From a virus (Duplodnaviria > Caudoviricetes): a DNA stretch of 48,780 nucleotides. The DNA lies in the IMG/VR virus record IMGVR_UViG_3300044468_000005, positions 1 to 48,780 of that record. The stretch is one strand, 5' to 3'. This document shows positions 8,951 to 47,025 of this stretch, one piece after another (position 1 is the first letter of the stretch; each line of letters begins with the position of its first letter). The notes under the pieces are model-generated. The model saw nothing but the letters and a program-made list of their open reading frames with translations, made no database searches and had not been told where the DNA came from. Position numbers and translations under genes: made by a program.

Positions 8951-9136
8951 TCAGATTCCGAGCTGTTCCATCGCGACGAGGCAGTGCGCCAGGGCGTCGA
9001 CGTTGCCCTCGAGGGCCATCTCGCAGAGCACAACTTCGGACCACATTTCAACCTCGCTGGCCTTTGCGCCGAGCAGGGCGATACGGGCGGCAGTCTCAGA
9101 GTCAATCTTGATGGTGCTGGTGTTCGTATTCGTCAT
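8951..9136 (-). CDS. Small hypothetical protein, predicted leaderless
   Basis: ATG lies 6 nt after a -10 box. Confidence 0.6.
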   Translation of the reverse strand: MTNTNTSTIKIDSETAARIALLGAKASEVEMWSEVVLCEMALEGNVDALAHCLVAMEQLGI

Positions 9137-9142
9137 GAGATA

Positions 9143-9176
9143 AGCATGAGCCCAGCGCGTAGATTTTGCAATACGC
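9143..9176 (-). promoter_or_regulatory. Leaderless sigma70-like promoter (copy 1 of a 19-bp motif)
   Basis: TTGCAA-17-CATGCT-6-ATG; CGTAGATTTTGCAATACGC at 9158-9176 is repeated at 10261-10279. Confidence 0.75.
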
Positions 9177-9204
9177 AATCTGCTCAATCTGCACGCCCAG
9201 TGCG

Positions 9205-9423
9205 CTAGGCAACAACGCTGCGCTGCTTCGCGAGCTCAGCAAGCCCCAGGCGCAGCACGTCCGACTCGCTCTTGCCGAGCTGGGCTGCGAGCGCCTGCAG
9301 GCACGCCCTCTCGCCAGGGCTCAGCCGCAGTGATGTGGTGGTGCTAGGGCCGTCTGCAGCCCGCAGAGGAGCGCCTGCGCCGGGCATGGGAGGGCGCTTC
9401 AACTTCTTGCGCTTCGCCGTCAT
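9205..9423 (-). CDS. Ribbon-helix-helix (CopG-like) regulator
   Basis: TSLRLSPGERACLQALAAQLGKSESDVLRLGL. Confidence 0.75.
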   Translation of the reverse strand: MTAKRKKLKRPPMPGAGAPLRAADGPSTTTSLRLSPGERACLQALAAQLGKSESDVLRLGLAELAKQRSVVA

Positions 9424-9656
9424 GCCGGGTCCCAGGCAGTCGCTTCCATGATGGCTTCGACGTACTCGCGCCAATCCGCCTCGAGCTCAGGGTCAGCGCC
9501 CTCGAGGCATGCCTGCAGCAGCTCGGCTTCGCTGACGCGCCCGTGGCGCACTTCGCTCAGGTCCACGGCCGGGCTGATGCCGGCGTATTCGACGCACTGC
9601 GCTGCTGCGCGGCTCATGCGTATGCCCTCGATGGTCACCAGATCGCACGTCATCAC
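9420..9656 (-). CDS. Hypothetical protein
   Basis: Overlapping ORF chain in a small operon. Confidence 0.6.
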   Translation of the reverse strand: MMTCDLVTIEGIRMSRAAAQCVEYAGISPAVDLSEVRHGRVSEAELLQACLEGADPELEADWREYVEAIMEATAWDPA

Positions 9657-9859
9657 ACCACCTCCTTCAGGCCAGCTTTGCGCGCCTTGCGCATGGCCTC
9701 AATCGCGTTGCCGACCGCGCGCTCGTGCACGATAGCCGTGCGCGTCAGCTTGTGCGTGGTCTTGCCGGTAGCGTCGAAGCGCTCGATCGTGCAGGTGTGA
9801 TAGTGCGCCCTAGTGTCGTAGTGAGCAGTGATGGCATACCCAAATATATTGCACCTCAT
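9653..9859 (-). CDS. Hypothetical protein
   Basis: Overlapping ORF chain. Confidence 0.6.
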   Translation of the reverse strand: MRCNIFGYAITAHYDTRAHYHTCTIERFDATGKTTHKLTRTAIVHERAVGNAIEAMRKARKAGLKEVV

Positions 9860-10239
9860 TCGTCGCGCCCCGGGACGCTGACCATGACCAGCTGGCCATT
9901 CCTATCGAAGGCTTCGTGGCGATCGGCCTTGCGGCCTGCCGCCCGCTGCGCCGGCTGCTGGTCGGCAGCCACCTTGTGCAGCATGGCCATGGCAGCGGCG
10001 ACCTCGCGCTCGTCGCACTTGAAAAGCTCGATAACCACACGCCCCTTGCGGTCAGCTTCCACAATCCAACTCTCACCGGGCGGCGTGGCGAGCTCGGCCT
10101 TCATGGCGAGCCCATGCGCCGCAGCACGCACATGCCTCCAGTGCGTGCCCTTCGGGGCCGTGATGACCAGCCTGGGCGAGGGGTTGTTGTACTCAGTCGT
10201 AGCCAGCACCACTTCGATCTTCATCTGCGGCTTCGTCAT
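9856..10239 (-). CDS. Hypothetical protein, predicted leaderless
   Basis: ATG lies 6 nt after a -10 box; first gene of the operon. Confidence 0.65.
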   Translation of the reverse strand: MTKPQMKIEVVLATTEYNNPSPRLVITAPKGTHWRHVRAAAHGLAMKAELATPPGESWIVEADRKGRVVIELFKCDEREVAAAMAMLHKVAADQQPAQRAAGRKADRHEAFDRNGQLVMVSVPGRDE

Positions 10240-10245
10240 GCCTCG

Positions 10246-10279
10246 ATCATGAGGCCCGTACGTAGATTTTGCAATACGC
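10246..10279 (-). promoter_or_regulatory. Leaderless sigma70-like promoter (copy 2 of the 19-bp motif)
   Basis: TTGCAA-17-CATGAT-6-ATG. Confidence 0.75.
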
Positions 10280-10282
10280 TAT

Positions 10283-11050
10283 CTAGTCGCTGTCATCACT
10301 TTTGTGCGCAAGAGGCGCACATGCATCGTACTTATCACGATGGAGCGTCGAGGTCGGTACTGCCCCGCCCCCTCCTGGCTGGGTGCCAGGCGTGCCGCTA
10401 CCAGCACTTCCGACGCACTCCTTCTTGTAGCGCTTTGGGTATGGCTTTGCTAGTGGCTTGAGGCGAGCCTGCATCTCGCTGTCGAGTGGCATCAGGTAGC
10501 GGTGCTTCCCTTCGAGCACGATGCGCGTGCACTCTGAGCGCTTTGGGCAGCGCCCTCTCTCCCCGAACTGCACTAAGATGCCAGTCGCGCTCGTTTCGCG
10601 GTTGTGCCAGATCCTGCCTCGCTTATCGCGCCATGCAGCGCCCTGCGCAGAACAGCCTGTGTAGATCCAGCCACCAGCCTGATAGATGCCTCCGTGGTGG
10701 TCTCGGTTAGGATCTGCAAACGAGACCACAATGCGCAGCCCTGGCGAGCGCTTGCGCAAGAACATGAGCGCCACTTTCACGATCCTCGACACAGGCGTGC
10801 TGTGCTCCCTGAGCGCAATGCGCGTAAGCTCGCAGCACTCTGTCTGCGCCAGACCGTATGGCTGGCCCATGTGCGAGTTGGCACCGCGAGAGAATATCAC
10901 AACGCCGATGAAACGACTGTCCTCCCAGACGCCCACCACGATCGCAGTCCCAGGCGGGACAGACTTCGAGTAGTGCCAGTGCTTGCAAGCGTGCCTTGCA
11001 GCAGCAGCGTTAGCCCAATCGAGGCGCAAGCTAGTTTTTTGCGAACTCAT
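10283..11050 (-). CDS. mom: Mom-family adenine-modification protein (GNAT fold)
   Basis: HWHYSKSVP, GVWEDSRFIGVVIF, ELTRIAL, VVSFADP..HHGGIYQAGGWIYTG and KHRYLMPL...PYPK. Confidence 0.88.
   Translation of the reverse strand: MSSQKTSLRLDWANAAAARHACKHWHYSKSVPPGTAIVVGVWEDSRFIGVVIFSRGANSHMGQPYGLAQTECCELTRIALREHSTPVSRIVKVALMFLRKRSPGLRIVVSFADPNRDHHGGIYQAGGWIYTGCSAQGAAWRDKRGRIWHNRETSATGILVQFGERGRCPKRSECTRIVLEGKHRYLMPLDSEMQARLKPLAKPYPKRYKKECVGSAGSGTPGTQPGGGGAVPTSTLHRDKYDACAPLAHKSDDSD
10341..10416 (-). tRNA. tRNA-Gly(CCC)-like element, non-canonical, embedded in the 3' end of mom
   Basis: 76 nt: GCGTCGG AA GTGC-TGGTAGCG-GCAC G CCTGG-CACCCAG-CCAGG AGG GGGCGG-GGCAGTA-CCGACC TCGACGC T CCA; all four arms pair, T discriminator and encoded CCA. 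Confidence 0.75.
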
Positions 11051-11534
11051 GACCGCAGTTCGGACAAGTGATTGTCGGCTGCTGGATTTCATCGAGCGCG
11101 CCCTGCGACTCTTCAGTCCCAGGCAGGAAATCTGCTGCCATCTTCTGGATGTCCTTGCTCGACCAGCCAGCAAGCTCGACGTCCGCCAAGTCGAAATCAC
11201 CGAGCAGTCGCTGCAGCTCGGGCACGTCCCAGGGCGCGAGCTCGTTCAGCCTGTTGTCTGCGAGCGCGAGCAGGTCGGCTTCGCGCTCCGTGAGCTCGAG
11301 CAAGCGCACCGGCACTCGCTCGAGCCCGAGCTGCTTGGCGGCCTTCCAGCGCGCATGGCCTGCGATGATGCGCTGATCTTCAGCGCGCGCGACGATGGGC
11401 GCGCCGAAGCCAAAGCGCTGAATCGACGACGCGACCTGCGCGACGACGCTGTCATTGAGGCGCGGATTTCTGCCCCATGCTTTCAGCGCGTTCGGCGACA
11501 TCCATACCGCTGCGCTCTCTTCGTTCGTGCTCAT
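11031..11534 (-). CDS. ParB/Srx N-terminal domain protein with C-terminal Zn ribbon
   Basis: NPRLND...SIQRFGFGAPIV...IIAGHARWKAAKQLGL...LADNRLNE; CPNCGHEF. Confidence 0.9.
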   Translation of the reverse strand: MSTNEESAAVWMSPNALKAWGRNPRLNDSVVAQVASSIQRFGFGAPIVARAEDQRIIAGHARWKAAKQLGLERVPVRLLELTEREADLLALADNRLNELAPWDVPELQRLLGDFDLADVELAGWSSKDIQKMAADFLPGTEESQGALDEIQQPTITCPNCGHEFAKN

Positions 11535-11561
11535 CTTTGCCCCCTTTGGCGTGAGCCGCTC

Positions 11562-11651
11562 AAGTCGTGATGCCGATCAGGCCGAGTAGGGGGCGCGCGC
11601 TGCGTGCGGATCTACGCAAGGCGCTAGTGTGGCCAATCGACATCACGACTT
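11562..11651 (-). promoter_or_regulatory. Long stem-loop in the leader of the parB-mom operon
   Basis: AAGTCGTGATG (11562-11572) pairs with CATCACGACTT (11641-11651); extends to 16 bp with one G-U on the minus strand. Confidence 0.55.
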
Positions 11652-11667
11652 CAGCTGCCCCCCCCCC

Positions 11668-12717
11668 TCACACATATTCGGCCCGGCAGTAGGCCAAAAG
11701 CTGCGCCTGCTCTGACGCTGACATGACATGGGCGCATGCCCCATCGATGGCCTGGTGCCCGAACGTCCCGGCGCCTTGCCCGAAATAGACCCGATCGAAG
11801 CCAGCGCGCGTGCGAATGGGCGCGCCCGAGATAGAGCCGACCTGCGTCCCGTTGATGTGGAAGGCGGCGAGCCCCGCAGAATAGGTCACGGCTAGCAGCT
11901 GCCAGGCATTCAGCACGAGCCCGGGCGAGACGGTGGCCGTGTGGATCGTCGACGCAGCAGCGGCATCCTTGATGGATAGGGTCATCGTTGTCGCATTGCC
12001 GTAGTACACGTCGATCGCTGAGGTCGGCCCGCCGATGGTCATCCAGTAAGAAGTGTTCCCGCTATAGTTCATCGTGGTAGGCCGGAAATACTTCCAGCAC
12101 GTGAAGGGCCCTGTGCCATTGAGCTGCGCTGCCGACGTGACTCCGCTCGTCGCGCCCATGTAGCGCCCGCCAGCGCCCGCCGTGCCGAGGACCTTCACGC
12201 TGCCAGGGATCAAATGCGTCGCAACGCCATAGTTGCGATTGACGTCGCCAGAGGTGAAAGCAATCCCGTATTTCAGGTCGGTGTAGTTCATGCAGTATCC
12301 CGGCGACGAGACCACGGCATTGCCGATGCCTACGCCCAAGGTTTCAATGACGCCCGCGGCATTCACGAACCTGATTTCTCCGGTATTCGGGGAATAGGCA
12401 GTGAATGAGCCATTGTTGCCGGCGTTAGCGTACCCGCTTAGCGTCACGGTCGCGCCGTCGAAGCCCTCATAGCGAGTGGGCGTATTGCCGTAGTAAGAGC
12501 TGTTCAGCAATACGCGCCAGTCTGGCGCGACCGTGTCGATGCTACGCGTCGATGCGCTGGTCTTATCGTGTGAGAACGCGCCCGTGGCAATGCAGGTCTT
12601 GTAGCTGTTGTAAAAGATCAGATCAGCGATCGCGAGCGGCGACCATTTGTAGGCGTTGCTCAAGATGACGCGCGCTGCAGCAGATGGGCTCATGCCAGCG
12701 TCCCTGACAAGTGCCAC
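11668..12717 (-). CDS. Tail fibre / receptor-binding protein with LamG/concanavalin-like C-terminus
   Basis: G/T/S/N-rich beta sequence; WQLLAVTY...FHINGTQV LamG pattern; last gene of the tail module. Confidence 0.7.
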   Translation of the reverse strand: MALVRDAGMSPSAAARVILSNAYKWSPLAIADLIFYNSYKTCIATGAFSHDKTSASTRSIDTVAPDWRVLLNSSYYGNTPTRYEGFDGATVTLSGYANAGNNGSFTAYSPNTGEIRFVNAAGVIETLGVGIGNAVVSSPGYCMNYTDLKYGIAFTSGDVNRNYGVATHLIPGSVKVLGTAGAGGRYMGATSGVTSAAQLNGTGPFTCWKYFRPTTMNYSGNTSYWMTIGGPTSAIDVYYGNATTMTLSIKDAAAASTIHTATVSPGLVLNAWQLLAVTYSAGLAAFHINGTQVGSISGAPIRTRAGFDRVYFGQGAGTFGHQAIDGACAHVMSASEQAQLLAYCRAEYV

Positions 12718-45366: not shown

Positions 45367-46300
45367 CGCTGCCCCCTCCGAAGCGCGCACGCTCCTCGGC
45401 TGCGAGAGCGCGATAACGCTCCATGTCTTTCGCCTTGATGGCCTCGGCCTGCTGCGCCTGCAGCTGCTCGCGCTCGCTCAGTCCGTTGCCCGCTGGCGCA
45501 TCGAGTAGCGCGCCGAACCGAGCGGCGAACGTGGCGTAGGGGGCCCGCCGCGTGATGTCTTCCGGCGGCTGCGCCGCCCAGCGCTCGAACACCTGCTCGA
45601 GCAAGACCAGCGGCTCGACCCCTCGGGCCTCGGCTGTGCCCACGAGCCGATCGGCAAAATCCTCCACCACCTCACCGCCGCCGAGATACGGGACCACGGC
45701 GAACCTGGCGCGGTAGAGCTCAGTGAATCTCTCTTGAATCTCTGGGGCAGAATGCCCCCTTGCCTCACGCGCGCGCGCACGCGTCAAAGGCGCGCGAGCG
45801 CCTTTGGTCCCATTCCCATTCCCATTCCCATTCCCAGAAGATCCTGGAAATCCCGGTACGAGTACCAGGCCTTCCCGTGCCTTACTCGGTTGTTCCTGAG
45901 CCTGGCCGAGGTCGGCCTGAGCCGTTCCCGGGCTTTCCTGGGTAATACTGGAATCCGCTGACGGCGGAGGCGGTATCCTACTGTCGGGCTCCTTATGATT
46001 CGGAGATTGATGTTCCCGGAACGTGCGAACGAGGCCGTAAGTCCGCCCGGCAACGTCGTACCGAATCACGAAACGTCCGTCCTCGAGTGCGGCTAGCACG
46101 AGCTCGAAATCGCCGTCCCAGTAAGGGAGAATCAGCGAACGCAGCGCACGCGGTCGCCACTCGAAGCGACCTTCTTTGTCCGCATACATCCAGAGCCCGG
46201 TGAAGGCCCGGTACAAGGGCAGCCCAGTGCGCTGCTCAGCGTCCCAGAGCTCTTCGTCCGACAGCACCTCGGGTTTGATGTTGCGGATCCTCGCTCTCAT
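45356..46300 (-). CDS. Phage replication initiator / replisome organiser
   Basis: RIRNIKPE...GLWMYADKEGR...F.EHQ N-terminal domain; GNGNGNGN linker. Confidence 0.82.
   Translation of the reverse strand: MRARIRNIKPEVLSDEELWDAEQRTGLPLYRAFTGLWMYADKEGRFEWRPRALRSLILPYWDGDFELVLAALEDGRFVIRYDVAGRTYGLVRTFREHQSPNHKEPDSRIPPPPSADSSITQESPGTAQADLGQAQEQPSKAREGLVLVPGFPGSSGNGNGNGNGTKGARAPLTRARAREARGHSAPEIQERFTELYRARFAVVPYLGGGEVVEDFADRLVGTAEARGVEPLVLLEQVFERWAAQPPEDITRRAPYATFAARFGALLDAPAGNGLSEREQLQAQQAEAIKAKDMERYRALAAEERARFGGGSDAH
45785..46020. repeat. Candidate replication origin inside the initiator gene
   Basis: Hairpin CAAAGGCGC-GCGA-GCGCCTTTG (45785-45806), (TCCCAT)4 at 45808-45836, recurring WTCCYG motifs. 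Confidence 0.45.
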
Positions 46301-47025
46301 GACGCATCCCCATCGAGCTCGAGCTGCTCAGCCTGCCCAGCGCTCTCAGCGAATAATGGCGGCGTGAACCCGCGCGCCAGGCGCTTGCGCGCAATCTCAT
46401 AGTGCTCGGGCATGCACTCTGCGCCAATGGCGCGCCTGCCTTCCTGCAGCGCTGCGAGAAGCGTTGTGCCACCGCCTGCGCAGGGGTCGCAGACGAGGTC
46501 ACCCGGGCGGGTGTAGTCGCGGATAATGGCGCGCATGAGCCACAAAGGTTTGCACCCGAGCACGCCATTCCGGCCTTCGATCATCGGCACTACATAGCCG
46601 CCCGGCAACGAGCCCCAGCGCTGCATACGCTGCGTCTTCGGCCGCGCGACTACAGCCCAGACCGACCATTGCGTGGGCCCATCGCCGACGAGGCGCACGC
46701 GCGAGCCGGGCTCCATACACGCAATCGGCGCGAACACATAACGCCCGATGCGCTCAAGCGCATCAGCCCATGCAGGCGCGAGCACGTGATCTGTCAGCGT
46801 GACAAACCAGCCACGCGTGCGCGGGGCCCACGCAGCGACGAGCTGATCGATCGCTGCGCTCGTGAACGAGTCATAGCTCAGCGCGCGCCGCCCGATCGCA
46901 GCCATGTCCCTGTAAGCGCGATGCGTCCGATCGCTGTACGGCGCATCGACGATCAAGGCATCGATCTGCTCGACGTCTACGAGCACGTCTTGCCAGCGCC
47001 CCAGTCGTAGATCCGCCGGGCTCAT
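46297..47025 (-). CDS. DNA N6-adenine/N4-cytosine methyltransferase (beta class)
   Basis: IVDAPY (DPPY-like), KPLWLM and DPCAGGGTT.AA...R.AIGAE. Confidence 0.88.
   Translation of the reverse strand: MSPADLRLGRWQDVLVDVEQIDALIVDAPYSDRTHRAYRDMAAIGRRALSYDSFTSAAIDQLVAAWAPRTRGWFVTLTDHVLAPAWADALERIGRYVFAPIACMEPGSRVRLVGDGPTQWSVWAVVARPKTQRMQRWGSLPGGYVVPMIEGRNGVLGCKPLWLMRAIIRDYTRPGDLVCDPCAGGGTTLLAALQEGRRAIGAECMPEHYEIARKRLARGFTPPLFAESAGQAEQLELDGDAS

Follow-up and report, generated by a model that had tools for sequence, protein, structure and literature searches.

A tRNA-Gly-like RNA nested in the 3′ end of a phage mom gene, a candidate dedicated glycyl donor for DNA modification

The Mom protein of bacteriophage Mu moves glycine from Gly-tRNA-Gly to the N6 of adenine, giving N6-carbamoylmethyl-dA, according to the available part of PMC13219725, which confirms for the Mu enzyme the donor that an earlier note on the DNA studied here had suggested. 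In that same partial text Mu Mom accepts all three Escherichia coli tRNA-Gly isoacceptors but not tRNA-Ala that has been mischarged, and it presumably reads the acceptor end only; the protein is cast as a scavenger of host tRNA, and the cost of co-opting the translation machinery is noted. The identity elements read by bacterial glycyl-tRNA synthetase (GlyRS) are U73, G1-C72, C2-G71, C35 and C36 (PMC9976931 and PMC9908026, as far as available), and the crystal structure of GlyRS displays no contact with the tRNA elbow (available text of PMC9908026). Binding to EF-Tu is tuned by the T-stem pairs 49-65 to 51-63, and these pairs are altered in the non-proteinogenic (NP) tRNA-Gly species of staphylococci; in Staphylococcus aureus the NP1, NP2 and NEW tRNA-Gly serve the Fem transferases (accessible portions of PMC9976931 and PMC4574755).

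The window analysed here is the whole 48,780-nt stretch of IMG/VR record IMGVR_UViG_3300044468_000005, a virus record found in soil runs. The 48.8-kb record carries genes for an integrase, repressor, terminase, portal, capsid, sheath and baseplate, and the source phage is a temperate soil myovirus; a DNA methyltransferase-like protein is also encoded (46297-47025, minus strand). On the minus strand, mom (10283..11050), which specifies a 255-aa Mom-like adenine modification GNAT (phrog_1384), comes behind the tail genes and a gene for a ParB-like protein. The assignment to mom made in the earlier note is upheld by profile matches to PF25680 (E 5.8e-43; 147.3 bits against a cut-off of 27.1; residues 8-206 covered) and to Mu Mom itself (PDB 8bv8, E 2.9e-20). 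The Mom domain (10433..11029, minus strand) ends at PYPK like Mu Mom, whose PYPK end aligns with residue 206 of the window protein. Equivalents of Mu H58, Y59, R111, S124, D149 and Y159 are kept, the position of Mu R151 is occupied by N115, and Mu W48 and W181 are unmatched. R151 is essential in Mu Mom (PMC13219725, part available), so that identical chemistry in the window protein is an assumption.

The ParB-like gene (11031..11534, minus strand; PF02195) overlaps the start of mom by 20 nt and is the usual upstream partner, present in 148 of 154 element-bearing loci versus 33 of 55 loci that lack the RNA element described below. The end of its product carries a zinc-ribbon-like CxxC motif (11031-11080, below cut-off) that overlaps the mom start, loosely resembling Com of Mu, which overlaps mom as well. 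A scan of positions 9000-12000 found no sigma-70 promoters and no terminators. An exact 17-bp direct repeat (9160-9176 and 10263-10279; chance expectation 0.05) has both of its copies directly upstream of small minus-strand ORFs, and is a possible promoter or operator separating mom from the next gene.

Codons 212-237 of mom contain a 76-nt tRNA-Gly-like RNA gene (10341..10416, minus strand). Its minimum-energy fold is a four-arm cloverleaf (-38.2 kcal/mol), and a structure-only descriptor ranks it as the best-scoring cloverleaf among 606 window tiles, bearing out the 76-nt cloverleaf that the earlier note had proposed. Folding energy on its own is weak evidence, because 7 of 200 shuffles fold equally well (z -1.9), and the 86.8 bits obtained with covariance model R1 are not independent, as R1 was built with this element included. 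The acceptor stem extends from G1-C72 to G7-U66, the D stem pairs 10-13 with 22-25, and the anticodon stem pairs 27-31 with 39-43 and presents the anticodon CCC (10383-10381). These arms, together with U73, the encoded CCA, the T loop GGCAGUA, A8 and A33, are as previously described, and the claimed loss of translation features is seen in A8, A33 and GGC in place of TTC. The T arm does have 5 bp, but a bulged A63 within it (10354..10354, minus strand; between pairs 49-64 and 50-62 in sequential numbering) had been missed; likewise, the 5-bp anticodon stem with CCC stands, but C32-G38 pair (probability 0.98) and close the loop to 5 nt rather than 7. Altogether the window element is without U8, U33, a TTC loop, an uninterrupted 5-bp T stem and a 7-nt anticodon loop, and it holds the full GlyRS identity set (G1-C72, C2-G71, U73, C35 and C36), all of which the earlier note had listed as present. 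Judged from its position in the fold, the bulged A63 is a candidate EF-Tu antideterminant. ARAGORN leaves the element uncalled from its default down to -ps80, a failure of the relaxed search that had been recommended as a check, and Rfam returns no tRNA (RF00005) match at E<=10, the only hit, mascRNA, scoring 18 bits where the gathering score is 42.5. When contigs of three DNA runs were compared, an independent run gave a contig identical across 10319-10577, and the element is therefore no assembly error.

To place the element in context, 240 loci were fetched by Mom protein similarity as the best 80 of each search, a sample biased to close homologues; adding the window and removing five loci with incomplete ends left 236 for counting. 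Of these 236 loci, 175 carry the element at the 3′ end of mom (119 of 149 clusters at 90% identity), and R1 recovers five further copies. With descriptor and covariance model combined, 56 of the 236 mom loci have no element within 1.5-2 kb; they are largely Firmicutes, enterobacterial and actinomycete prophages. The descriptor demanded a 7-nt T loop and overlooked true copies, including those of the two closest Mom homologues (L289 and L290), and copies lacking the D arm and distant from the mom end were possibly overlooked among the 56 negatives, because R1 describes full-length copies only. A structure-only score of at least 15 was reached in 174 of 236 test windows, versus 4/235, 9/236 and 14/224 in the controls. 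In a Mom tree (FastTree, 105 rows, weak deep support) the full, short and absent states of the element are intermingled.

Covariation in homologues, and conservation of the anticodon CC and of CCA, had been set beforehand as the test by which the proposal could be refuted, and all of these were found, together with a conserved U73. Across 32 of the 49 full-length copies, 97.7% of cells are paired and 17 of 22 pairs show compensatory change, a result matched by none of 500 shuffles; RNAalifold, unaided, returns the same structure, bulge included. The 174 structure-scored copies all begin with GC and all carry U73, G3 is present in 168 and an encoded CCA in 141; this count is unbiased with respect to G1-C72 and C2-G71, which were a search criterion, and are hence circular, among the 138 distinct elements compared below. 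The T-stem bulge occurs in 123 of the 138, is an A in every one of the 123, and is flanked by pairs that covary. Of the 138, 137 retain CC at positions 35-36, whereas base 34 varies freely (ACC 56, TCC 41, CCC 13, GCC 6); to our knowledge, ACC anticodons are practically absent from bacterial tRNA-Gly. The majority of the elements (89 of 138) belong to a D-armless class of 63-67 nt, in which only 11 of the 89 can form a hairpin at the D-arm position. U8 is retained in 8 of 138 elements versus 71 of 81 host tRNAs, the TTC loop in 21 of 138 versus 81 of 81, and U33 is mostly lost; ARAGORN at its default passes only 10 of the 138. The RNA family linked to Mom is real and widespread.

The association also holds in the reverse direction. 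Scans with T-arm plus acceptor motifs, which use neither the anticodon nor protein information, covered at least 120 viral and at least 120 metagenome loci; they address the bulged class only, and the T stem of elements found in this way is circular. Of the 240 matches listed, 221 have mom next to the element (112/120 viral and 109/120 metagenome), making linkage to mom near complete for the bulged class. Among these same listed matches (120 of each kind), mom ends at the element in 99 viral and 92 metagenome loci, starts right after it in 13 and 17 (30/240), has another position in the locus in 1 and 4, and went undetected in seven of each kind, with four of the seven viral loci having less than 190 nt upstream. 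The motif does not require CC, and CC nevertheless stands at 35-36 in 95 of 95 distinct metagenome copies (from 100 loci). The elements upstream of mom are separate genes that look more canonical. The mom-linked copies of five bacterial genomes reach 63-90 bits, compared with 43-52 bits for ordinary tRNA-Gly. Some of the more canonical copies are annotated in GenBank as plain tRNA-Gly, and Salinibacter phage B2_17 has an annotated tRNA-Gly after mom. At the mom loci of Mu, Salmonella SP-031 and a Proteus phage, no element was detected.

Several individual loci depart from the arrangement seen in the window. A second Mom subfamily, which ends at MYKG rather than PYPK, also runs into an element (L481 and about 50 similar loci). 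Tandem, differing copies follow mom in L482 (569-644 and 650-725, TCC then ACC), and two D-armless copies stand in tandem after mom in L134 and L160. In the Arthrobacter phages BarretLemon and Sicarius2, genes resembling tRNA-Gly(TCC) overlap the end of mom but carry no annotation (L082, 2110-2183, and L084, 2056-2129). The Microbacterium phages Appa and Phonegingi encode a more canonical tRNA-Gly antisense to mom, 32 nt beyond it (L081, 2166-2240, and L088, 2154-2228, both minus strand), with a G7-A66 mismatch and anticodons that differ (CCC versus TCC). These antisense copies and the separate upstream copies fit a product that acts in trans. Six loci (L108, L462, L489, L508, L522 and L534) have an element without a Mom match in the fetched flank, and such mom-less copies could be orphans or could be tied to another transferase.

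Whether CCA is encoded appears to follow the host. In ten genomes picked with knowledge of the element's CCA state, CCA is encoded in 10 of 42 sampled tRNA genes from five Planctomycetota-labelled genomes whose element is without CCA, and in 43 of 44 tRNA genes from five proteobacterial genomes with a CCA-bearing element. Counted by hand for each phylum, the figures are 9/11 versus 2/10 (p 0.009), with G002 and G003 as counter-examples, and the tendency of an encoded CCA to track host habit is suggestive.

Because Mu Mom ends at PYPK, residues 207-255 of the window protein are extra; they form a 49-aa read-through tail (10283..10432, minus strand) that crosses the RNA and is absent from Mu Mom. 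The earlier note had regarded the tail as read-through of the RNA, which agrees with the end of Mu Mom, but the tail is not incidental, since the mom frame is depleted of stops within the element and its own stop often overlaps the start of the next gene. Among the 138 elements, mom stops beyond the CCA in 125, inside the element in nine and before it in four. In-frame stops inside the element are present in 12 of 138 in the mom frame versus 54 and 86 in the other frames, the shuffle expectation being 59, and with one element per 70% cluster (75 clusters) the corresponding counts are 11 versus 25 and 45. The peptide sequence of the tail is not conserved: at the 3′ end of the short copies, each of the three frames is used in one copy or another. 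In 71 of the 125 read-through loci the mom stop is overlapped by the next ATG, and, separately, 71 of 119 predicted next genes were scanned, of which 48 matched the terminase small subunit. The window itself is without this stop/start overlap, its next ORF beginning 44 nt after mom. The open read-through frame is under selection, and it is probably selected for translational coupling.

We propose that the RNA at the mom 3′ end is likely excised, charged with glycine by the host GlyRS and used by Mom as a dedicated glycyl donor, and we put the probability of this reading, which is drawn from sequence comparison, at roughly 0.7. The element keeps the features that GlyRS reads and, as far as its sequence can be interpreted, loses those needed for translation; a charged, ribosome-excluded donor is favoured because of this pattern and because the bulge falls at T-stem pairs that set how tightly EF-Tu binds. 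The anticodon in particular speaks for charging, since GlyRS reads C35 and C36 and Mom presumably reads the acceptor end only. The tRNA-Gly-like RNA would likely be cut out of the late transcript, and the host synthetase would likely charge it; the charged RNA would then serve Mom for adenine modification in phage DNA, with the T-stem bulge presumably weakening EF-Tu binding and so keeping the RNA from translation in late infection. Nesting would make mRNA and RNA alternative products: a translated transcript would yield Mom and permit re-initiation on the next gene (usually the terminase small subunit), whereas an untranslated transcript would fold and be cut at G1, presumably by RNase P, and the remaining mom mRNA would have no stop codon but would contain the complete coding sequence of the enzyme domain.

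Several observations weigh against the donor reading: the D-armless copies (89/138) may be poor substrates for GlyRS or RNase P, the window Mom is without Mu R151, G002 and G003 depart from the CCA trend, and in this phage CCC could decode GGG, which makes up 123 of the 497 Gly codons counted over 15 late genes. A precedent for processing and charging without a D stem is offered by tmRNA. The element is dispensable for Mom chemistry as such, given that Mu, Salmonella SP-031 and the Proteus phage do without it and that Mu Mom uses all isoacceptors. The word private, under which the donor was originally proposed, consequently has to be softened: a dedicated donor is the best reading, but in the sense of preferred or supplementary, because of that isoacceptor use and the 56 of 236 loci without an element.

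The arrangement of the reading frame would also suit a cis-acting switch, in which the fold, as a cleavage site for RNase P or as an mRNA mimic bound by Mom, holds down expression of mom and of the coupled terminase small subunit and never donates glycine. The mom stop beyond the CCA (125/138), the depletion of in-frame stops (12/138 versus 54 and 86), the overlap of the next ATG with the stop (71/125) and the terminase gene that follows (48 of 71 scanned) are all as such a switch predicts, and the same model has been proposed for selC in selB (PMC8124441, partial text). It leaves the invariant C35-C36 and U73 unexplained, however, as well as the stand-alone upstream, tandem double and antisense copies, and we consider it improbable as the sole function; regulation in cis and a donor role can coexist. 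Similarly improbable, in our estimate, is a general supporting role for tRNA-Gly, whereby the RNA aids translation, or refills or shields a pool drained by Mom or hit by host anticodon nucleases, without being Mom's preferred substrate. The ten copies passing ARAGORN at its default and the more canonical look of the upstream copies are consistent with that role, but D-armless forms, 5-nt loops, a free base 34 with ACC commonest, and the bulge fit decoding poorly, and among the matches listed the bulged class is linked almost completely to mom.

That the element is a relic or an accident, either the decayed remnant of a host tRNA-Gly acquired as an attP site or a fold arising by coincidence in coding DNA rich in GC, is very improbable. 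The phage does have an integrase and the single-sequence folding z is only -1.9, but the element differs from host tRNA-Gly (63-90 versus 43-52 bits), lies about 4.8 kb from the integrase and conserves its non-canonical features, while control windows stay near background. Covariation across diverged homologues led us to reject both the attP relic and the chance fold.

Under the donor reading, Mom and its RNA would make up a two-component system, an extension to which we give an even chance: widespread uncatalogued RNAs, many of them D-armless and 63-67 nt long, would be produced from one gene that supplies both an enzyme and an EF-Tu-evading carrier, and the choice between translation and processing would balance enzyme, co-substrate and terminase in such a way that modification of the DNA precedes packaging. 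It is suggested that many Mom homologues close to the window protein bring their own carrier, which would give phage tRNA-like genes a concrete non-translational role and account for the odd C-terminal tails annotated on these Mom proteins. The RNA family is overlooked by ARAGORN and Rfam; one motif alone corresponds to about 860 stored viral stretches. Its members are putative minimal GlyRS substrates of natural origin and provide a candidate antideterminant for EF-Tu. In a body of literature with few subscription journals, we found no description of a tRNA-like gene associated with mom, and the family apparently is undescribed so far; other bulged tRNAs have been reported in PMC5389517, the available part of which makes no mention of mom. 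New beyond the earlier note are the invariant T-stem bulged A, the 32-38 pair, the D-armless class and the selected read-through frame. Known already are the dedicated-tRNA-Gly logic of the Fem transferases and the nested layout of selC in selB.

With canonical bacterial tRNA-Gly (RF00005) the element shares the cloverleaf, the 7-bp acceptor, G1-C72, C2-G71, G3-C70, U73, an NCC anticodon and CCA, and the window copy differs in A8, A33, the 32-38 pair, the absence of a TTC loop and the T-stem bulge. Mu Mom (PF25680, PDB 8bv8; PMC13219725, part available) resembles the window protein in family, in most catalytic residues and in the PYPK end; in Mu, however, no tRNA-like element follows mom and host tRNA-Gly is used, whereas the window mom runs through its own tRNA-Gly-like RNA. 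The staphylococcal NP tRNA-Gly, as far as the available sources describe them, are similar in keeping GlyRS identity, in losing the D- and T-loop consensus and in having altered T-stem EF-Tu determinants, and like the element they are proposed to be dedicated to a tRNA-dependent transferase. The change at 49-65 to 51-63 is a bulge in the element and a pair substitution in the staphylococcal species, which carry UCC and act in Fem peptidoglycan synthesis, whereas the element has CCC in the window and a variable base 34 elsewhere, and is linked to mom. The element further differs in being phage-encoded, in its DNA-modifying partner, in its nesting within the ORF of that partner and in its D-armless forms. 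The nesting is paralleled by selC (tRNA-Sec) in the 3′ end of selB, where, in the accessible text of PMC8124441, the final codons of the gene for the partner protein likewise contain a whole tRNA, translation of which yields a C-terminal extension, and expression is proposed to be of the either-or kind; the selB stop overlaps the start that follows, as the mom stop does in 71 of 125 read-through loci, though not in the window. There the tRNA serves translation through SelB, whereas the phage RNA appears built to avoid translation and sits in a DNA-modification module.
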